NCBI GenBank assembly: GCA_964387425.1
Contig: CAYLXP010000099.1
Location: 1 to 20,997 of the forward strand
Origin: an uncultured Victivallales bacterium
GTDB taxonomy: Bacteria; Verrucomicrobiota; Kiritimatiellia; UBA8416
Length of the DNA: 20,997 nt
Reading direction: 5' to 3'
A program made the position numbers and the translations under genes. The notes under the pieces were generated by a model. The model saw only the letters and a list, made by a program, of their open reading frames with translations, was not told the DNA's origin and ran no database searches. Every line of letters begins with the position of its first letter. Position 1 is the first letter of the stretch. Shown piece after piece: positions 9,101 to 20,997 of the stretch.

Positions 9101-9328
9101 ATGATGAGTACCTTATTGAATGTTATTCTGCTGGCCCTCGGATGGCTTCTGGTGGTGTTGGCTGGCGGATTTATTGAGCGCGAGAGAATCGCCGTTTATA
9201 TTGATGAAAGGCGCTATCGCGGCTCGTTCAGAGGGCGTAAAGCCCACTGTTCTATAAAAACAGAATACATGCACTCCATAGGGAACGAAAATACCCTGCC
9301 TTGTTCGATCACAGGCAAAGATCTCTGA
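9101..9328 (+). CDS. doubtful small ORF (75 aa) with one N-terminal transmembrane helix, in a low-GC island
   Basis: 'STLLNVILLALGWLLVVLAGGFI' is a plausible TM helix. AGGTGG lies 12 nt upstream. Codon usage (tta, aat, gtt, att, ttt, tat, ata, aaa) is unlike the rest of the window. A good promoter lies inside the ORF. It may not be coding. Confidence 0.2.
   Translation: MMSTLLNVILLALGWLLVVLAGGFIERERIAVYIDERRYRGSFRGRKAHCSIKTEYMHSIGNENTLPCSITGKDL
9174..9202 (+). promoter_or_regulatory. sigma70-like promoter (TTGAGC-N17-TATATT) in the low-GC island upstream of the structured RNA and rarA
   Basis: -35 TTGAGC at 9174-9179, an exact 17-nt spacer, then -10 TATATT at 9197-9202. The predicted TSS is near 9209, about 285 nt upstream of the rarA ATG. 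Confidence 0.4.
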
Positions 9329-9478
9329 CCCAGTACATAGGTATCAGGGAGCTGGAATGCGGCGGATGACGGTGTAACTGCCTTCGGGCAGGAGACCTGA
9401 AACGCTGACTATAGCACCCACCTCGCTTGCGAGGTTCAGAGACGCAGCTTGGTACGGCAACGGTGGGGTATTTTTTTT
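9290..9478 (+). ncRNA. candidate structured small RNA (possible 6S/SsrS-like) or terminator-containing leader upstream of rarA-ygfA
   Basis: A UUCG tetraloop hairpin lies at 9378-9391 (ctgcc-ttcg-ggcag). A CUUG tetraloop hairpin lies at 9421-9434 (cctcg-cttg-cgagg). A long-range closing helix pairs 9290-9305 with 9456-9472: 16 bp including G.U pairs and one bulged C. It ends in T8 at 9471-9478. These features are strand-specific: the complements would be CGAA and CAAG loops. Local GC is about 48% against about 62% for the window. Confidence 0.35.
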
Positions 9479-13988: not shown

Positions 13989-15392
13989 ATGGAGTCGAGA
14001 GGAAAAGCTTCGTTGCAGATGTTGGGGCAGGATCGGACGGCTGATGATCGCCCGAAGGCGCTATCGGTTTCCGAACTGACGCGGATGATCAAGGGCACGC
14101 TGGAAGGACGCTTCGGCAGCGTGCTCGTGGAAGGCGAGCTCTCCAACGTAAGCCAACCCGCATCGGGTCACCTCTACTTCACCATCAAAGATGCGAACGC
14201 CCAGATTAGCGCGGTCATGTTTCGGGGCAACCAGCGGGGGTTGAAATTCCGCCCTCAGGATGGCGTCGTGGTCCGCGCCCGGGGCGAGATTAGCGTCTAC
14301 GAGCGGCGCGGGAACTACCAGATTCTCGTGCGGCGCATGGAGGAGGGCGGCAAGGGCAGTCTGCAGGCGCAGTTCGAGGCCCTGAAGGAGAAGCTCCAGA
14401 AGGAGGGGCTCTTTGCCAAGGAGCGCAAGCGGCCGCTACCGATGCTGCCGCAGCATGTGGGCGTGGTCACCTCCGCGACCGGCGCGGCCATCCGCGACAT
14501 TCTGAATGTGGTTTCACGCCGCTTTCCCAACCTGCACGTCCTGGTGGCACCCGCCAAGGTCCAGGGTGATGGTGCCGCCGAGGAGATTGCGAGTCAGATT
14601 GATCGGCTCAACGAAATCGGTGGCCTGGACGTTCTGATCGTGGGGCGGGGCGGCGGCAGTCTCGAGGATCTCTGGAGTTTCAACGAAGAGGTCGTTGCGC
14701 GGGCCATTGCACGATCTACGATTCCCGTGATCTCGGCCGTGGGGCACGAGGTGGACTTCACGATCAGCGATTTCGTCGCCGACCTGCGGGCACCGACACC
14801 GTCGGCAGCCGCCGAGCTGGTCGTGGGCTGCAAGGAGGCGTTCCAGGATCGCCTTGCCGAGCAGCAGGGACGTCTTGTGCGGGCGCTGCGGGAGAGCGCG
14901 CTTGCCGCCCGGAACCGGTTGCTGCATGCGGCGGGGAGCTACGTGTTCCGCGAGCCGGCCAACGCCGCGGCACGGCACCGTCAGAAACTGGATGCGTGCC
15001 GGATGCGGATTGAGCACAAACTACGCGGTGCGCTGCAGGAGACGCAACAGACGCTGGACCTGATTGAGTCGCGTCTGCAGCAGGAGACACGCACGGCAGT
15101 CCAGGTGAGCCGCCAGACGCTTGAGGATCTCCGGCTGAGAATGGTTCACCGCGCCAAGCTGCGCCACCAGATGGGCGTCCAGGATGTGCGCCGCGTTGCC
15201 ATGCAGCTGCGGGCATTGAACCCGTTGGCTGTACTGCAGCGCGGTTACTCGGTAACGCGGGGCGCCGATGGACGCATCATTGCCAGAGTTGCGGACGTGA
15301 AGCCGGATGAGATCGTGGAGACGCAAGTTGCGGATGGACGCTTTGAGGCCGAAGTGAAGATTGTGAAGAAGGACGAGGGGCGCTCCGGGTAG
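13989..15392 (+). CDS. xseA: exodeoxyribonuclease VII large subunit
   Basis: 'LSVSELTRMIKGTLEGRFGSVLVEGELSNVSQPASGHLYFTIKDANAQISAVMF' is the XseA OB-fold N-terminus. A catalytic region and C-terminal coiled coil follow. The start is uncertain: ATG 13989 or 14019, with GTG 13923 as the tracked maximum. Confidence 0.85.
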   Translation: MESRGKASLQMLGQDRTADDRPKALSVSELTRMIKGTLEGRFGSVLVEGELSNVSQPASGHLYFTIKDANAQISAVMFRGNQRGLKFRPQDGVVVRARGEISVYERRGNYQILVRRMEEGGKGSLQAQFEALKEKLQKEGLFAKERKRPLPMLPQHVGVVTSATGAAIRDILNVVSRRFPNLHVLVAPAKVQGDGAAEEIASQIDRLNEIGGLDVLIVGRGGGSLEDLWSFNEEVVARAIARSTIPVISAVGHEVDFTISDFVADLRAPTPSAAAELVVGCKEAFQDRLAEQQGRLVRALRESALAARNRLLHAAGSYVFREPANAAARHRQKLDACRMRIEHKLRGALQETQQTLDLIESRLQQETRTAVQVSRQTLEDLRLRMVHRAKLRHQMGVQDVRRVAMQLRALNPLAVLQRGYSVTRGADGRIIARVADVKPDEIVETQVADGRFEAEVKIVKKDEGRSG

Positions 15393-15451
15393 GGTTGCTC
15401 TCCTTGACTGGAGTGAGCGGGGACGCTCACTAGGCCTGCGGAGAGCAACCC
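15392..15451 (+). repeat. 60-nt nested perfect hairpin immediately after the xseA stop
   Basis: The outer 12-bp perfect stem pairs 15392-15403 (gggttgctctcc) with 15440-15451 (ggagagcaaccc). The inner 7-8-bp stem pairs 15413-15419 (gtgagcg) with 15424-15430 (cgctcac) around a GGGA loop. No T-run follows. Confidence 0.5.
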
Positions 15452-15515
15452 CACCCTTCGCTGGATGCGTGGGGCCGGGAACAGTGGAATATGATAGAAG
15501 AGAAGGAGTTTCGTA

Positions 15516-15818
15516 ATGGCTGCAAAGAAGACCGATGAGAAGGCGCCGAGTTTTGAGAAATCCATGGATCGCCTTGAGGCGATTGTCTCCGATATGGAAG
15601 GCGGCGAGCTCAGCCTGGACGCGATGATTACGCGTTTCGAAGAGGGACAGTCGCTGATCAAGTTCTGCTCGGGAAAACTGGACGAGGTGGAGCGGAAGAT
15701 CGAGAAACTGCTGACGACCGAGGGCGACATCCAAACGGCGCCATTTGGTGACGACACTGACGACGATGACGACGACGATGAGAACGGCGACGACGAGGAA
15801 GGGAAGTTGCTGTTCTGA
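15516..15818 (+). CDS. xseB: exodeoxyribonuclease VII small subunit with a poly-acidic C-terminal tail
   Basis: 'SFEKSMDRLEAIVSDMEGGELSLDAMITRFEEGQSLIKFCSGKLDEVERKIEKLL' is typical XseB. RBS AAGGAG lies 7 nt before ATG 15516. The C-terminus reads 'DDTDDDDDDDENGDDEEG'. Confidence 0.85.
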   Translation: MAAKKTDEKAPSFEKSMDRLEAIVSDMEGGELSLDAMITRFEEGQSLIKFCSGKLDEVERKIEKLLTTEGDIQTAPFGDDTDDDDDDDENGDDEEGKLLF

Positions 15819-15879
15819 ACGTCGAGCATCCAGCCAACGCCCAAGACGGGCAAGCCTCGAACACTGAGCCTCGAACACC
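15817..15879 (+). repeat. copy A of a dispersed intergenic repeat (roughly 75% identical to the core of copy B at 20858-20920)
   Basis: Copy A reads 'gaacgtcgagcatccagccaacgcccaagacgggcaagcctcgaacactgagcctcgaacacc'. It aligns to 'gaacgtccaacaccgaaccaacgccacaggcgggcaagcattgaacatccaacctcgaacgaa' in copy B. The shared core is 'ccaacgcc..a.g.cgggcaagc.t.gaaca...cctcgaac'. It starts at the xseB stop codon and runs up to the dppD-like start. Confidence 0.45.
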
Positions 15880-15880
15880 T

Positions 15881-16855
15881 GTGTTGTTGGATGTCCAGGG
15901 CCTCTCTGTCGGTTTTCGCAACGGGCCTGACGAGGTGATCGTTGTTCGGGACGTGAGTCTGCGCATTCGCGAGGGCGAGACGGTCGCGCTGGTAGGCGAG
16001 AGCGGTTGTGGCAAGAGTGTCACGGCGCTTTCCCTGGCGCGTTTACTGCCTGAGCCTCCGGCATTTCATCCAGCCGGTGTCATCGTCTTTCGTGGACGCG
16101 AAGTACTGCAGATGTCACGGGCAGAGATGCGAGCGATTCGCGGCGGCCAGATTGCCTACGTGTTCCAGGATCCCGGGACAGCATTGAATCCCGTCTTCAG
16201 GATTGGGTTCCAGCTCCAGGAAGCAATTCGGTCGCATCGGAAAGATGTCGATGCGGACGAGGAGGCGGTTCGCCTGCTCAAGCAGGTCGGGTTGCCCGAT
16301 CCAGGAGCCTGTCTGCGGTCGTATCCGCACGAACTGAGCGGCGGCATGCAACAGCGAGTGGTCATCGCGATGGCATTGGCCTGTCGCCCCAAGCTGCTGG
16401 TGGCCGATGAGCCGACGACGGCGCTGGATGTGACGATCCAGGCGCAGATCCTTGATCTTCTGAAGAGTCTCCAGGAGGAGCTGGGAATGGCCGTGCTGCT
16501 GATTACGCACAATCTTGGCCTGGTTGCGGACGTTGCCCATAGTGTTAACGTGATGTATGCGGGGAGTCTCGTGGAATCGGGACGCGTCGAGGAGGTGCTT
16601 GCCGCTCCAGCCCATCACTATACGAAGGGTCTGCTCGATGCCGTGCCCCGGTTGGCCGCTTCGGAAGGCCGCATGCAGGGAATTGATGGTGCGGTCCCTT
16701 CGCCACGCGAACTGCCGTTGGGCTGCCCGTTTGCCCCGCGCTGCGCCAAGGCCGCGGATGAATGCCGCCGCACGATGCCGAGGACGCGCAGCATCTCTAG
16801 TGGTCGTGGCCATGCCGTACGCTGTCATTTTCCTTTGGGAGTCGCCGTGAATTGA
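15881..16855 (+). CDS. Dpp/Opp-family ABC transporter ATP-binding protein (DppD/OppD-like)
   Basis: Walker A 'GESGCGKSVT', signature 'LSGGMQQRV' and Walker B 'LLVADEPTTALD' are present, with a Cys-rich oligopeptide C-terminal extension ('GCPFAPRCAKAADECRR'). GTG or TTG start at 15881. Confidence 0.85.
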   Translation: MLLDVQGLSVGFRNGPDEVIVVRDVSLRIREGETVALVGESGCGKSVTALSLARLLPEPPAFHPAGVIVFRGREVLQMSRAEMRAIRGGQIAYVFQDPGTALNPVFRIGFQLQEAIRSHRKDVDADEEAVRLLKQVGLPDPGACLRSYPHELSGGMQQRVVIAMALACRPKLLVADEPTTALDVTIQAQILDLLKSLQEELGMAVLLITHNLGLVADVAHSVNVMYAGSLVESGRVEEVLAAPAHHYTKGLLDAVPRLAASEGRMQGIDGAVPSPRELPLGCPFAPRCAKAADECRRTMPRTRSISSGRGHAVRCHFPLGVAVN

Positions 16856-16865
16856 TGATTGAGAG

Positions 16866-16906
16866 CCGCGATGCAATATTGCATCGCGGTGGCCACATGC
16901 TATCAT
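16866..16906 (+). promoter_or_regulatory. perfect 24-bp palindrome overlapping a sigma70-like promoter directly upstream of the DUF433 gene
   Basis: The palindrome CCGCGATGCAAT|ATTGCATCGCGG spans 16866-16889. The promoter is -35 TTGCAT (16879-16884), a 16-nt spacer, then -10 TATCAT (16901-16906). The predicted TSS is at about 16913, 2-3 nt before ATG 16916, so the mRNA is near-leaderless. No SD sequence is visible. Confidence 0.55.
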
Positions 16907-16915
16907 ACGAACACC

Positions 16916-17140
16916 ATGAACGAGTACATAGCAATCGAACCAGGCGTTTGCCATGGGAAGCCTTGCATCAGGGGTACCCGAATACTGGTCAGCGGTATTC
17001 TGAATATGATGGCACACGGTGCCGACATCGGCGAGGTGCTTGACGCCTACCCACAGCTCTCACGTGAAGCCGTGCTTGCAGCACTTGCCTACGCCGAAGC
17101 TCTCGTCGAAGATGAAGAAATCCTGCCGGTTGCGGTCTGA
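16916..17140 (+). CDS. DUF433-family small protein (putative antitoxin or DNA-binding partner)
   Basis: 'MNEYIAIEPGVCHGKPCIRGTRILVSGILNMMAHGADIGEVLDAYPQLSREAVLAALAYAE' matches the DUF433 pattern (I..dP.v..GkP.IrGTRi.V..vl..l..G.s.eeIl..yP.Lt.e.i.aAL.YA). It is about 75 aa. The tracked upstream extension from 16859 runs through the palindrome. Confidence 0.8.
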   Translation: MNEYIAIEPGVCHGKPCIRGTRILVSGILNMMAHGADIGEVLDAYPQLSREAVLAALAYAEALVEDEEILPVAV

Positions 17141-17505
17141 TGCGTTTGCTTCTGGATGAGAACCTGCCCATCATGACGGTCAAGTTTCTTCGCGAGTTGG
17201 GCCACGATGTGGTTGGCGTTCACGATGAAAGTCTCGTTTCCCAGGCGGACGAGTTCATTTTCGCGCACGCGCGACAGTCCGAGCGTGTGCTCGTTACCTA
17301 CAATGCTGACTTCATCGATCTGCGGGCATTGGCAGGAGTCCATCACAGCGGCATCATAAGGCTGCGGATCAGTAACCAGCGGCCCCACTTTGCACATCCG
17401 ATCTTGCGGACAGCTCTTGAGCAACTGCAGGATCGCGATCTTGCGGATACGCTTGTCACCGTGAGTGACCAGCGCATTCGTGTGCGGCACACTTCAGAGC
17501 CCTGA
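17140..17505 (+). CDS. DUF5615-family PIN-like protein (putative toxin partner of the DUF433 gene)
   Basis: 'MRLLLDENLPIMTVKFLRELGHDVVGVHDESLVSQADEFIFAHARQSERVLVTYNADFIDL' is the DUF5615 / Mut7-C-like PIN-fold signature (DENL...GHDV...T.D.DF). The start overlaps the DUF433 stop by 1 nt (TGATG at 17138-17142). Confidence 0.8.
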   Translation: MRLLLDENLPIMTVKFLRELGHDVVGVHDESLVSQADEFIFAHARQSERVLVTYNADFIDLRALAGVHHSGIIRLRISNQRPHFAHPILRTALEQLQDRDLADTLVTVSDQRIRVRHTSEP

Positions 17506-17517
17506 GCCCGTCGTACG

Positions 17518-18510
17518 ATGCAAACGGAAACACATCATCTCCTTCTCGATGTCTGTGACCTCGTGGTCGAGTACCAGGTGGAGGGGAAGCGCGTGCTGCG
17601 GGCGGTTGATGGCGTGAGCTTCTCGGTCGGAAGGAACGAAGTCGTCGGGCTTGTGGGGGAGAGCGGTTGCGGGAAGACGACGACAGGCAATGCCATCGTG
17701 GGGCTGGCGCCCGTGGCTGCGGGGACGATTCAGTTCGACGGCCGGGACATAACGAGTCGCACGGCGGCGGAGAAGCGGCAGCTTTGCTGCGAGGTACAGA
17801 TGGTCTTCCAGGACCCGATGGGTTCGCTCAATCCCCGCCTTCCCGTTGGTGACGCCGTGCTCGAGACGCTTGTTGTCCATCGTGGCCGCCTGGGGTTAGC
17901 CACGCGCGCGGCACAGCGTGCCCGGGTTGAGGAGCTGCTCGACATGGTGGGCCTGGGAGCGGACTTCATCCCGCGCTACCCGCACGAGTTGAGTGGGGGG
18001 CAGCGGCAGCGGGTCGGCATCGCGAGAGCTCTCGCGGTTCAACCGCGTCTGCTGATCGCCGATGAACCGGTCTCCGCCCTGGATGTTTCCGTACAGGTGC
18101 AGATTCTCAACCTGCTCAAGGACCTGAGCGCGGAGCTTTCGTTTGCCTGCCTGTTCGTCGCACACGATCTTGCTGTCGTACGGTACATGTGTGACCGGAC
18201 GCTGGTGATGTACTTTGGGGAGATCGTGGAGGAAGGCCCCACGGAAGCGCTATTCCAACAGCCTTCTCATCCCTACACGCGAGCGTTGCTGTCGGCGGTG
18301 CCCGACGTAGACAAGGGCCTGGCCGCACGGAAGGGCGGGGGAGACCGCATCATTCTCGAGGGTGAAGTTCCGTCGCGACTCGAACCGGTTGAGGGCTGTC
18401 CATTCCACACGCGTTGTCCGCAGGCGGTCGAACGTTGCCGGACGGATAAGCCGGTCGCAACCGATTGTGGTGACGGCCATCTTTCGCGCTGTCATTTTGC
18501 CCACGGATGA
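17518..18510 (+). CDS. Dpp/Opp-family ABC transporter ATP-binding protein (DppF/OppF-like)
   Basis: Walker A 'GESGCGKTTT', signature 'LSGGQRQRV' and Walker B 'LLIADEPVSALD' are present, with the C-terminal 'GCPFHTRCPQAVERCR' extension. It lies 12 nt downstream of the DUF5615 stop. No obvious SD. Confidence 0.85.
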   Translation: MQTETHHLLLDVCDLVVEYQVEGKRVLRAVDGVSFSVGRNEVVGLVGESGCGKTTTGNAIVGLAPVAAGTIQFDGRDITSRTAAEKRQLCCEVQMVFQDPMGSLNPRLPVGDAVLETLVVHRGRLGLATRAAQRARVEELLDMVGLGADFIPRYPHELSGGQRQRVGIARALAVQPRLLIADEPVSALDVSVQVQILNLLKDLSAELSFACLFVAHDLAVVRYMCDRTLVMYFGEIVEEGPTEALFQQPSHPYTRALLSAVPDVDKGLAARKGGGDRIILEGEVPSRLEPVEGCPFHTRCPQAVERCRTDKPVATDCGDGHLSRCHFAHG

Positions 18511-18543
18511 TATACTCACCGCATCTTGAGGAGACGCCAGTTC

Positions 18544-19392
18544 ATGATAAGAGCTTTCCTTTGCACAGCACTGGTCTGCGTTCTGACCGGTTGCGGTCAT
18601 GCTACCCTGGACGGCCGGCTAGGTGCGGGCGTCCGCTATTCATCCTACGGTCCTCCCTCTAATCCCGGCGCTCGATACTGGACCAGGGTGGCTCGCGATA
18701 TGGCGGACACCTTTCCGAAAGCCGTCCCCCAAGTGGTGTGGATCGTGGGTACCCGTGAGGGCACCGGTACCCGCCTTAACTTCCCCGGGCAGAGCGATAG
18801 CCCGCACATTATGTTCTCGGAGGCAGACGCAAACGAAGAGGTGCTGACTCGGTTTGATCGTATGCGGGGGCAGGTTTGGTTGCAGGTGGAACCGGGGCAG
18901 GCTTCGGTAGAGGAGTTGATTGACATTCTGCTCCAGCGCTATGGACATCACCGGTGCGTGATCGGAGTGGGCGTGGATGTTGAGTGGTTTGGTGCCGGCG
19001 ATGATGCGATCGGGACGCCCGTGTCGGACGAGGTGGCCCGGTCCTGGGTCGCGGCTGTTCGCAAGCACGGATCGAACTACTGGCTCTTTCTAAAGCACTG
19101 GCTGACGTCGCACATGCCGCCGACAGAGAGAGACGGCATCATGTTCATTGATGACAGCCAGGACCTCCATTCCCTCAATGCCATGGTGTCTGAGTTCAAG
19201 ATGTGGGGGAAGGCGTTCGAGCCTGCCCCAGTTGGCTTCCAGTATGGGTACGCTTCCGATAGGGAGTGGTGGCAGGTCCTGGACAATCCTCCGGCTGACA
19301 TCGGTGATGCGCTTCTTTTCGAAATCCCGAACACAAAAGGCCTGTACTGGGTGGACTTCACGGTCTTTGAGATTTTCCCGCCAGAAGAATGA
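18544..19392 (+). CDS. lipoprotein of unknown function (283 aa)
   Basis: The signal peptide 'MIRAFLCTALVCVLTGCGHA' carries the lipobox LTG|C. RBS GAGGAGA (18528-18534) lies 9 nt before ATG 18544, 33 nt after the dppF-like stop. The mature part contains 'VGVDVEWFGAG'. A glycoside-hydrolase-like TIM-barrel fold is only a guess. Confidence 0.7.
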   Translation: MIRAFLCTALVCVLTGCGHATLDGRLGAGVRYSSYGPPSNPGARYWTRVARDMADTFPKAVPQVVWIVGTREGTGTRLNFPGQSDSPHIMFSEADANEEVLTRFDRMRGQVWLQVEPGQASVEELIDILLQRYGHHRCVIGVGVDVEWFGAGDDAIGTPVSDEVARSWVAAVRKHGSNYWLFLKHWLTSHMPPTERDGIMFIDDSQDLHSLNAMVSEFKMWGKAFEPAPVGFQYGYASDREWWQVLDNPPADIGDALLFEIPNTKGLYWVDFTVFEIFPPEE

Positions 19393-19416
19393 CATGTGTT
19401 TTTTCTGAAATTCCTG

Positions 19417-19446
19417 TTGACGCAAAGAACTTTGTGATGCAAAGTT
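19417..19446 (+). promoter_or_regulatory. promoter-like -35 (TTGACG) followed by a 7-5-7 palindromic operator-like site AACTTTG-TGATG-CAAAGTT
   Basis: TTGACG lies at 19417-19422. The perfect inverted repeat aactttg (19428-19434) / caaagtt (19440-19446) has a 5-nt spacer. It sits in the 60-nt AT-rich gap between the lipoprotein stop and the next ORF. No convincing -10 was found. Confidence 0.4.
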
Positions 19447-19454
19447 GATGGCGA

Positions 19455-19958
19455 TTGAGGAAACGTCTGACTCGCACGGAGGCCGAATTGACCGATACGC
19501 CGGATAGTGAAAAACGCGAGAAGCGACACGACGCAACCTACTGGTTCAGGTGGGTGATGGTGCTGCCGGCGACCGGCGCGGCGTTTCTCATGGCCGGTAT
19601 CCTCGGCGCCATCCCCGCCTTCTTCGTCCAGGATGAGTGGGGGCTCATTCTCTCGGGACCCCTGTGTGCGATAGCCTGGGTATTTGTTGCCTGGGCGACG
19701 GCGCCCTCACATCGGGTGACGACTGCCATCTCAGCATTTTGCGTGGGTGCCGGAGTCGCGGCCGGGCTTGTGCTGCTGATCCCCGTGGGCTTCGTCCTGA
19801 AATTCACGATGTTCACCCTCACGTGTGCAGGCGGTCTGGGAGCTCTTGCCTTCTGCCTGCCCAAGGCTCATCGGCAGAAGGTGATTCAACAGATCAAGAC
19901 AGTCACATCAAACAGCATTAAGACTATTCAGAACACGGCAACAATGAAGGAGGACGGA
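19455..19958 (+). other. in-frame upstream extension of the SPFH ORF encoding about 4 transmembrane helices (possible N-terminal domain of a fusion protein, or translated leader)
   Basis: No stop codon separates this segment from the SPFH part. It encodes 'LPATGAAFLMAGILGAIPAFF', 'LILSGPLCAIAWVFVAWA', 'AISAFCVGAGVAAGLVLLIPVGFVL' and 'FTLTCAGGLGALAFCL'. Candidate starts are TTG 19455 or ATG 19557, the latter after AGGTGG at 19548-19553. The last 60 nt (19900-19958) are AT-rich with A/T third positions, like a linker or UTR. Confidence 0.35.
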
Positions 19959-20849
19959 ATGTCAGAGCACCAGAGTATTCGACAGTTTATCAAGGGGAAC
20001 ATCTGGGCCAAGTTGGTGACCATAGTCATCGTGTTGGTTGTGGCTGCGAACGTGGTCATCGGCCTCGGTCGCGGCACCGTGGATATCATCACGCAGGAGT
20101 ACAAGGGACTCTACATGCGGATGGGGCGCTATGTCCGGACGGTTGATCCTGGTCTTCATCTGAAGATTCCCATCGTCGATCAGATCATCCGTGTCAACGT
20201 TCGGGAGCGACAGGGCTATATCCAGCATGTTGATGCAATGACCAAGGACAATGTCATCATGCGCGTCTCATTGCAGTACACGTTCGAGGTCACCGATCCC
20301 GTGAAATACCGCCTTGAGATGGATGATCCGGACAATATCATTCTCGAGTTCGTGCAGGGTAAGCTCCGCGACATCGTCAACACCATCTCGATGGCGGAGG
20401 TTATGCAGCAACGCCAGCAGCTCGGTCAGAGCATGACCGACGCACTGGCGGAGAAGGAGTCGCACTTTGGTGTCCATTTCCTGCTGATCCAAGTGCAGGG
20501 CACCTACCCTCCGACCGAGGTAGAGGAGGCGATCAAGCAGCGCATGGTGAGCGAACAGCGCACCGTGGCGGCTGAGCAGGAGGCGAGGCAGAAGGAGATC
20601 ATCGCTGATGCCGACTTCTACGAAGCACAGAAGCGTACGGATGCCGCCAAGTACGAGATCGAGGAAACGGCTGCGGCCAAGAAGGAATCGATCAACCTGT
20701 TGCTCGGAGAACTCTCCCAGAATGAAGCTCTGGGCGAGAAGTACCTCGAGTACTTGATCGCCCAAGAGCTCAAGAGCAACAGCAAGTGGATTATTTCCGG
20801 GAGCCAAGTTCCCGAGATGCATCTGAATGCAGAGGGTGGGGGGCAGTAG
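19959..20849 (+). CDS. SPFH/band-7 (stomatin/HflC-like) membrane protein
   Basis: A consensus RBS AAGGAGG (19947-19953) lies 5 nt before ATG 19959. It is followed by a TM helix 'IWAKLVTIVIVLVVAANVVIGLG' and then the SPFH core ('YMRMGRYVRTVDPGLHLKIPIVDQIIRVNVRERQ...MTKDNVIMRVSLQYTFEVTDP'). A coiled-coil, Glu/Ala-rich C-terminus follows. Confidence 0.75.
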   Translation: MSEHQSIRQFIKGNIWAKLVTIVIVLVVAANVVIGLGRGTVDIITQEYKGLYMRMGRYVRTVDPGLHLKIPIVDQIIRVNVRERQGYIQHVDAMTKDNVIMRVSLQYTFEVTDPVKYRLEMDDPDNIILEFVQGKLRDIVNTISMAEVMQQRQQLGQSMTDALAEKESHFGVHFLLIQVQGTYPPTEVEEAIKQRMVSEQRTVAAEQEARQKEIIADADFYEAQKRTDAAKYEIEETAAAKKESINLLLGELSQNEALGEKYLEYLIAQELKSNSKWIISGSQVPEMHLNAEGGGQ

Positions 20850-20850
20850 C

Positions 20851-20965
20851 CCGTTCCGAACGTCCAACACCGAACCAACGCCACAGGCGGGCAAGCATTG
20901 AACATCCAACCTCGAACGAAGAGAACTTCAGACTTCGATGTTCGGTGTTGGACGTTCGGTGTTCA
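20851..20965 (+). repeat. copy B of the dispersed repeat, with 20-bp perfect terminal inverted repeats (MITE/REP-like palindromic element)
   Basis: The 5' arm 'ccgaacgtccaacaccgaac' (20856-20875) is the exact reverse complement of 'gttcggtgttggacgttcgg' (20940-20959). The 64-nt spacer contains the core shared with copy A. A direct partial duplicate 'gttcggtgtt' lies at 20955-20964. The element begins 2 nt after the SPFH stop codon. Confidence 0.5.
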
Positions 20966-20997
20966 TCTCTTCATCACCCATCATACCGGTAGCCGGC

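Follow-up and report, generated by a model that had tools for sequence, protein, structure and literature searches.

Intergenic heptamer arrays of an uncultured Victivallales bacterium are probably members of a dispersed palindromic repeat family whose full-length forms carry S23p-type genes

Repetitive extragenic palindromic sequences (REPs) are single imperfect palindromes of about 20-40 nt, species-specific and mobilised by a REP-associated tyrosine transposase (RAYT), and miniature inverted-repeat transposable elements (MITEs) such as the Correia element of Neisseria are about 100-150 bp long, lie near gene ends and are co-transcribed, with a hairpin that RNase III can cleave. Intervening sequences (IVS) with an S23p gene are known from the 23S rRNA of Coxiella, Leptospira and others, and the IVS of Coxiella has a 28-bp terminal stem that is cut by RNase III and an open reading frame (ORF) for an S23p protein in its loop, preceded by two or three tandem GACAGAT heptamers, the number of which varies by strain (PMC4990558). 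Tandem arrays of short units also make up the 'global regulator binding sites' of Geobacter metallireducens, of which classes 1-3 consist of 3-5 tandem hepta-, octa- or nonanucleotides (PMC2700814), and the cyanobacterial short tandemly repeated repetitive (STRR) heptamers and TAACTGA repeats, for which a post-transcriptional role has been proposed (PMC4679880). Our analysis concerned a stretch of 20,997 nt from an uncultured Victivallales bacterium (contig CAYLXP010000099.1, forward strand; hereafter the window), in which two intergenic sequences, copy A behind the gene xseB and copy B behind an SPFH/Band 7 gene, are both built from phased heptamers. The two copies probably belong to a large family of intergenic heptamer-array palindromes whose full-length members carry an S23p gene (four-helix-bundle protein, PF05635) and have an anatomy like that of the IVS.

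A preliminary description of the window had pointed to a sequence of about 62 nt, about 75% identical at the two places, in the same orientation and next to a stop codon, and to a palindrome after the SPFH gene, and on all these points it was right. A repeat search of the window aligns 15812-15876 (copy A) with 20853-20917 (copy B) over 65 nt, ungapped and on the same strand, with 50 of the 65 positions identical (77%), and when the copies were compared with the window by blastn, the A-B pair gave E values of 1.4e-11 to 1.8e-11 and all other matches E > 3. The similarity starts 5 nt within xseB, at GTTCTGAAC, which represents conserved C-terminal codons of that gene. The core pattern CCAACGCC-N5-CGGGCAAGC has exactly two mismatch-free matches in the window, at 15834 (spanning 15834-15855 in copy A) and at 20875. 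The parts of the two elements are as follows.

15817-15879, plus strand: copy A, a solo array of nine phased heptamers (63 nt = 9 x 7), in the same frame as copy B
15838-15858, plus strand: core of copy A, CGCCCAA GACGGGC AAGCCTC, with a 4-bp GC mini-hairpin (GCCC/GGGC) seen in the predicted fold
20858-20920, plus strand: left array of copy B, nine phased heptamers in the same nine-unit frame as copy A
20879-20899, plus strand: core of copy B, CGCCACA GGCGGGC AAGCATT, 21 nt, the middle three units
20921-20939, plus strand: loop segment of copy B, the GAGAACTTCAGACTTCGAT region, 19 nt, conserved in the sister species L140
20937-20964, minus strand: right inverted array of copy B, four heptamers, from regular-expression run detection
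20856-20959, either strand: hairpin of copy B, a perfect 20-bp stem with a 64-nt loop

The units of copy A are GAACGTC, GAGCATC, CAGCCAA, CGCCCAA, GACGGGC, AAGCCTC, GAACACT, GAGCCTC and GAACACC, several of them degenerate, with GAGC or CAGC where GAAC or CAAC would be expected, and those of the left array of copy B are GAACGTC, CAACACC, GAACCAA, CGCCACA, GGCGGGC, AAGCATT, GAACATC, CAACCTC and GAACGAA. The core is in both copies a 21-nt GC mini-hairpin embedded in phase. Read on the minus strand, the right array of copy B is GAACACC, GAACGTC, CAACACC and GAACATC, and Tandem Repeats Finder (TRF) reports a period-7 array at 20934-20964. The 18-mer GAACGTCCAACACCGAAC is found in copy B at 20858 (plus strand) and at 20940-20957 (minus strand), plus once more at 20900 with three mismatches, for a chance expectation of 0.05. 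The 20-nt arms 20856-20875 and 20940-20959 are 100% complementary, and copy B is predicted to fold as RNA with -47.3 kcal/mol on the plus strand (z = -4.61 against shuffles) and -53.6 kcal/mol on the minus strand (z = -4.39), whereas the predicted fold of copy A equals its shuffles (z = 0.06). The pairing arms of copy B comprise 3-4 units, the left array being broken by the core; taking away the 28-nt insert leaves five SAAC units on the left.

A role as an RNA-level 3' stabiliser or terminator had also been suggested for these sequences. No U-tract follows copy A or copy B, the terminator scan of 15000-20997 calls neither, and the sequence trailing copy B is GGTGTTCATCTCTTC; judged by its sequence, copy B is not an intrinsic terminator. 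The terminator part of that suggestion finds no support at either copy, and a stabilising or processing role stays plausible for copy B, the only one of the two that folds beyond its shuffles. At the gathering score, neither copy nor any of 12 family loci matches Rfam, no Rfam rRNA match was found in those 12 loci, and the window's sole Rfam match is a 6S RNA. A CRISPR was considered and rejected, as the window contains no regular repeat-spacer array.

That the two copies are part of a dispersed family, as the preliminary description had supposed, was borne out by a metagenome scan with the arm 18-mer GAACGTCCAACAYCGAAC, which gave at least 120 loci with a GC content of 36-70%, non-redundant save one near-duplicate pair; the 18-mer also occurs in 32 loci of a viral-contig collection, and the palindromic architecture is seen in both sets. 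Among the 125 metagenome matches listed and assessed, runs of at least four in-phase units are present in 121, an inverted array lies downstream in 68 and upstream in 21, 22 are cut by a contig end, and about 35 have no partner array within 1500 nt although no contig end cuts them. The usual member reads AAAAGAT-(GAACRTC/CAACRTC)x5-GAATAAT, a variable interior of 2-320 nt, and ATTATTC-(GAYGTTC)x5-6-ATCTTTT, so that the usual arm of about 42 nt consists of five SAAC units and one GAAT unit. Of 120 runs among the matches listed, 70 have a strict count of five units and 72 continue in phase with a unit that begins with GAAT: unlike a microsatellite, the array has a fixed length. About three-quarters of the 46 two-armed members that were folded are predicted to form 20-40 arm-to-arm base pairs; 16 of these 46 have at least six T within 10 nt past the right arm, and about a third of the two-armed members have T-rich tails and A-rich leaders. 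The neighbours are ordinary housekeeping genes, and divergent-gene spacers hold only 4 of the 48 elements that could be classified. With its inverted arms, its intergenic position and its scarcity between divergent genes, the family fairly deserves, for its anatomy, the label 'REP/MITE-like' of the preliminary description. No fixed distance to, or coupling with, stop codons is seen across family members. The breadth of the family across taxa is judged from the GC range, one named Desulfobacteraceae genome and the assignment of the window to the Planctomycetes-Verrucomicrobia-Chlamydiae (PVC) group. Counted by locus (labels such as L001 or L140 denote the metagenome contigs and genomes compared), there are two sites in 21.5 kb of L140 and four elements in 20 kb of L211. 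In the latter, three ORF-less two-armed heptamer elements stand in tandem at 19246-20058 within one spacer of about 1 kb, resembling a cluster of bacterial interspersed mosaic elements (BIMEs).

The core of copy B has a homologue in an unrelated locus, L059:8836, where it reads CGCCAGAGGCGGACAAGCATC and lies between GAAC heptamer runs. The 31 matches to the core pattern in viral contigs were discarded, all being unrelated sequence without flanking heptamer runs and most falling in conserved coding-like phage sequence, and five earlier core-pattern matches were at chance level. A literature search for the unit strings matched only unrelated PCR primers in the papers searched, and the family is an apparently undescribed intergenic palindromic repeat. 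A blastn search of the PLSDB plasmids with a typical element gave no match, though the low-complexity filter may have masked the query.

The link to S23p-type proteins comes from the full-length members of the family. All four full-length four-helix-bundle genes in the sample sit between an array and its inverted partner, the array preceding the start codon by 10-40 nt, and a PF05635 gene or remnant lies within 100 nt of the array in 7 of the 120 loci listed. Full-length members with a PF05635 ORF in the loop are L120, L060, L121, L025, L210 and L211, and shorter elements hold 5' or 3' remnants of the gene. The protein of the L120 type has more than 7,600 homologue clusters, the best of them 86-95% identical, and those of its best homologues that are named after an organism come from Desulfobacteraceae, Desulfatiglandaceae or 'Deltaproteobacteria'. 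Arrays bracket the gene likewise in L210, from the Desulfobacteraceae Eth-SRB1 genome, and in L211, where the cassette lies in a string of type II secretion system (T2SS) genes, between those for T2SS E and F. Around four-helix-bundle genes that have diverged further (34-37% identity), the bracketing inverted arrays consist of other heptamers, among them GATTTGG/CCAAATC at L110:9000-9700 and CTTCAAT or CTCAAAT versus GACGAAT at L136:4300-4900; such an association of gene and heptamer array could be a general trait of PF05635. Among solved structures, the nearest relative of the cassette protein is 2rld, an entry of five chains. The loop of copy B was like the start of a four-helix-bundle ORF in only one of eight comparisons (p = 0.006), and this likeness is not established.

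Both copies in the window sit between protein-coding genes, with the following boundaries.

15816-15818, plus strand: stop codon TGA of xseB (ORF 15516-15818; Pfam Exonuc_VII_S), overlapping the first heptamer of copy A
15881-15899, plus strand: start codon GTG and MLLDVQG codons of the dppD-like ABC ATPase gene (ORF 15881-16855), coding sequence
20847-20849, plus strand: stop codon TAG of the SPFH/Band 7 gene (ORF ending at 20849; Pfam Band_7)
20974-20976, minus strand: stop codon of the convergent response-regulator gene, from gene calls on L002-L004 (15459-16139, minus strand; offset 5515)

The first heptamer of copy A, GAACGTC at 15817-15823, begins within the xseB stop, and a single base separates the end of the array from the dppD-like GTG at 15881, copy A being nearly the entire 62-nt xseB-dppD spacer. 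The idea that a 3' arm of copy A had eroded where it meets the dppD start finds no support, for the bases concerned, GTGTTGTTGGATGTCCAGG, encode the conserved N-terminus MLLDVQG, and the sister species L140 has the same coding stretch (LLDVQG), with three heptamers upstream and no hairpin. Copy B begins 9 nt past the SPFH stop and, because the response-regulator stop lies at 20974-20976 on the minus strand, it is placed in a 124-nt spacer (20850-20973) between convergent genes. The window makes up the opening 20,997 bases of a metagenome scaffold from ENA and ends at an N-gap that the assembler set immediately behind copy B; beyond that gap, a portion of the right arm appears a second time (L001:15483-15580). 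The apparently 155 nt longer spacer of L001 is this N-gap with its duplicated sequence, and we rejected an insertion polymorphism; copy B itself is real, since the sequence continues across the site in further assemblies of this population.

The orthologous sites in relatives give these elements a history. RNase Y from the window shares 87% identity with a protein of a 'Verrucomicrobia bacterium' metagenome-assembled genome (MAG) and 72% with Kiritimatiellae proteins, which places the host in the PVC group, and the thrS-to-dppF synteny is conserved among the relatives of the window. In the sister species L140, whose genes are 78-91% identical to those of the window at the nucleotide level (about 84%), site A has only three heptamers, TGAACGACCAACGTCCAACACC. 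Site B there has three units to the left of its loop and six inverted units to the right, and folds with z = -2.0; positions 51-114 of copy B match L140:18886-18949 with 83% identity, loop included. Since L140 too bears arrays at the two sites, the elements have long been resident there and did not arise by local duplication. The two sites moreover differ in parallel, with three units in L140 against nine units with a core in the window, which suggests that they evolve in concert through recombination among copies. In L011, site B holds an allele made up of six units, the sequence CAGGGA and five inverted units, without core, which folds with z = -4.0; one arm change is paired, CACC/GGTG in the window against CATC/GATG in L140 and L011. 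Site B has thus kept a hairpin of changing composition over about 16% nucleotide divergence. No arrays are present in more distant relatives (RNase Y 86-88% identical): xseB overlaps dppD in L143, and the xseB-dppD junction of L145 (14363-14440) holds an unrelated palindrome with 33-nt arms that are 85% complementary. Different palindromic elements have settled independently at this junction.

Some details of these loci stand apart. In L140, no ATG, GTG or TTG lies upstream of the dppD LLDVQG codons (14520-14560), where the three heptamers are in frame; the start may be CTG or ATA, or the heptamers may be translated, and the start chosen by the gene caller is 25 codons downstream. From rny to the hypothetical gene, L003 and L011 match the window at 100% of positions, but in the SPFH gene (19488-20849) beside copy B at only 97.3-97.9% (97.3% for L011); L011 has, in addition, a different gene downstream. 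These differences point to recombination with a breakpoint at the element, or to an assembly that is chimeric there.

Taken together, it is probable that copies A and B descend from the heptamer-array palindrome family whose complete form is an S23p cassette of IVS-like anatomy; membership in the family, architecture, the link to the cassette and behaviour at orthologous sites are direct observations. Copy A and the left half of copy B would be two copies of one nine-heptamer array of the GAACGTC/CAACRYC type, into which the core was inserted in phase. As full-length members carry the four-helix-bundle gene between their arms, copy B (array, loop, inverted array) would be an ORF-less miniature of the cassette and copy A a solo array, or half-element. 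Such elements would be non-autonomous repeats, selfish or near-neutral, that survive at the ends of genes and are kept alike by recombination between copies. If transcribed through, the 20-bp duplex of copy B would come to lie in the 3' regions of both convergent mRNAs, and since 20 bp is about the minimum length of an RNase III substrate, it may be cut by this enzyme, by analogy with the IVS stem of Coxiella, or else act as a barrier to 3' exonucleases. Copy A, which has no such structure, would be a mere spacer in the xseAB-dpp gene string, and the presence of an unstructured copy inside a co-directional string fits the idea that strong stems are tolerated only at the ends of transcription units.

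Several observations weigh against this reading. The four-helix-bundle gene has no significant tblastn match in the window and none in the related loci, and sites were counted in about 27 kb of this genome, with two found there. Nor did a signature of mobility emerge. No transposase, Y1 (RAYT-type) included, is among the best 25 families per set for the 177 ORFs next to family members; a clean presence/absence polymorphism was not seen either; and in the target-site duplication test on 44 members the longest flank match was 4.6 nt against 4.5 nt in mismatched pairs, the exact termini being uncertain. No autonomous relative that encodes a transposase was found in the family, the full-length members encoding only the four-helix-bundle protein of about 120 aa. 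The arms of copy B, with 3-4 units, are below the usual five plus one and have the rare CACC variant. Cleavage by RNase III or blocking of exonucleases is deduced from the stem length, and the conservation of the site B hairpin could reflect host selection instead of selfish persistence.

This last point leads to a possible, if clearly less favoured, alternative, in which the copies are host-selected cis-acting RNA elements, the stem-loop ending or protecting the upstream mRNA, whether by stabilising its 3' end, by terminating transcription in both directions or as a retroregulatory RNase III site, and family membership tells of their origin only. Copy B suits this role in that it fills a convergent spacer and folds beyond shuffles on both strands (z = -4.6 and -4.4), its hairpin has been kept at site B of L140 and L011 despite restructuring, one change in the arms being paired, members of the family are scarce in divergent spacers, and the T-rich tails and A-rich leaders of about a third of them resemble bidirectional intrinsic terminators. 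However, neither window copy has a U-tract or a terminator call, copy A is unstructured and lies within a co-directional gene string, the family keeps no fixed distance from stop codons, and a terminator model leaves unexplained why full-length members have these arms on either side of a gene. We regard it as rather unlikely that the phased heptamers are instead a protein-binding platform, that is, iterated DNA or single-stranded RNA sites for an oligomeric protein through which copies near genes would act, the best candidate being the pentameric S23p-type protein of the full-length elements. The fixed array length (five strict units in 70 of the 120 runs listed, plus a terminal GAAT unit), the conservation of the array sequence across GC contents of 36-70% and the pairing of different four-helix-bundle subfamilies with different heptamers all suit such a platform, as do the five chains of 2rld, the X. 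campestris S23p, which is reported to be a homopentamer (cited in PMC4990558), and the similar paired sites of Geobacter metallireducens, proposed as regulator-binding (PMC2700814). Against this putative platform stand the absence of a four-helix-bundle gene from the roughly 27 kb covered for this organism and the presence of a gene or remnant within 100 nt in only about 7 of the 120 loci listed, and the agreement of five units with five subunits may be coincidence. More doubtful still is the extended proposal that the arrays are the cognate platform of pentameric S23p-type proteins. Arrays and gene together would then make up a self-propagating or RNA-processing cassette, with the rRNA IVS merely its best-known landing site, and ORF-less miniatures and solo arrays such as copies B and A would be relics, dependent on the protein in trans and dispersed over the genomes of several phyla.

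Two further explanations fare much worse. GTCCAAC and GTTGGAC of copy B fit the inverse-core (RYYYAAC) and core (GTTRRRY) sites of an integron attC in the correct 5'-to-3' order, and the family favours the order GAAC...GTTC (68 versus 21 of the matches listed). The stem is nevertheless perfectly paired, without extrahelical bases or an unpaired central spacer, the gene of full-length members is inside the hairpin and not upstream of it, neither the window nor the survey of flanking genes contains an integrase or a same-orientation cassette array, and the neighbours are housekeeping genes in conserved synteny, so that an attC-like recombination site, very improbable in our estimation, is largely ruled out by the anatomy and effectively excluded. 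Chance similarity, or a one-off duplication within the 21-kb region, would agree with there being only two copies in the window and is the least credible of all, being refuted by the E value of about 1e-11 for A-B, by more than 150 loci elsewhere with the same arm and architecture, by the arrays of the sister species at both sites and by the recurrence of the core between heptamer runs in the unrelated locus L059.

Returning to the family of heptamer-array palindromes, its place among the described systems can be set out from both sides. Like REPs, BIMEs and REPINs (paired REP sequences), its members are short, intergenic, palindromic and dispersed, combine direct and inverted units as mosaics, occur in solo and paired forms, are rare between divergent genes and evolve in concert within a genome. 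Unlike them, the family has arms that are phased-heptamer arrays of about 42 nt common to several phyla, its full-length forms carry the four-helix-bundle gene, and no RAYT is found among the neighbour families listed. Terminal inverted repeats, present in copy B, are shared with MITEs such as the Correia element, but no target-site duplication was detected in the members tested and the arms are internally periodic; we know of no parent transposon with a transposase for this family. The resemblance to the 23S rRNA IVS extends to the terminal inverted-repeat stem (28 bp in Coxiella (PMC4990558), 20 bp in copy B, 20-40 bp in about three-quarters of folded members), the PF05635 gene in the loop of full-length members, the tandem heptamers just upstream of the gene, with a copy number that varies between strains, and the view of both as selfish elements. 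In contrast to the IVS, which lies in helix 25 or 45 of the 23S rRNA, the elements described here lie outside it between ordinary protein genes, their heptamer is GAACRTC and not GACAGAT and builds the whole arm on both sides, and the window copies have no ORF; RNase III cleavage is proposed for copy B by analogy.

The sites of Geobacter metallireducens share with the family the pairing of an array with an opposite-strand array at variable distance and the dozens of intergenic copies, but their units are GTTGCTYN, TCTCCGTS[Y] and MTYCTGA, they were described for one genome, and a link to four-helix-bundle genes is not mentioned in the passages covered (PMC2700814). The STRR and TAACTGA repeats are likewise intergenic tandem heptamers with a unit common to distant phyla and no evident transfer, whereas they form simple arrays in direct orientation, with 2-43 copies and for the most part right before start codons, and lack an inverted partner or a fixed length (PMC4679880).

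By themselves, the two copies of the window are ordinary repeat copies; what gives them interest is the cross-phylum family and its connection with S23p and the IVS. This connection goes beyond the preliminary description, as do the phasing of the heptamers and the embedded core. An arm of about 42 nt is conserved nearly base for base in non-redundant contigs of 36-70% GC, including those of the PVC-group bacterium of the window and of Desulfobacteraceae, and three subjects that are each little understood are brought together: heptamer arrays dispersed in genomes, the very abundant genes for 'four helix bundle protein' and the rRNA IVS. If true, the S23p platform reading would provide a protein family and a class of elements, both unexplained since about 1990, with a function that can be tested. 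The arrays also have practical consequences, as they break assemblies (the gap at the end of the window is caused by copy B, and many metagenome matches lie at contig ends) and create spurious ORFs and N-terminal extensions in gene calls.

Other features of the window were noted in passing. Just upstream of copy A, xseB has an acidic, Asp-rich low-complexity tail encoded by GAC-type triplet repeats (15750-15797; TRF periods 3, 12 and 15). A DUF433/DUF5615 (PIN-like) toxin-antitoxin pair (16871-17505, plus strand) lies between two oligopeptide-type ABC ATPase genes, which in L140, L143 and L145 are adjacent or overlapping, without this insert. The gene at 18544-19392 (plus strand) encodes a hypothetical protein of 282 aa with no Pfam match, whose only homologues in the genome collection are in two Anaerolineae MAGs (52-55% identity, no shared synteny). 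A nested palindrome of about 155 nt at 1411-1565, with arms 1411-1428/1548-1565 and 1447-1467/1511-1531 that are 89-95% complementary, lies in a long stretch without a convincing gene and is unrelated in sequence to the heptamer family. Finally, a 6S (SsrS) RNA gene at 9290-9473 (plus strand; Rfam RF00013, 66.6 bits, full-length match) lies between pheT and an MgsA-like AAA ATPase gene, with the end of a called 75-aa ORF (9101-9328) overlapping it.

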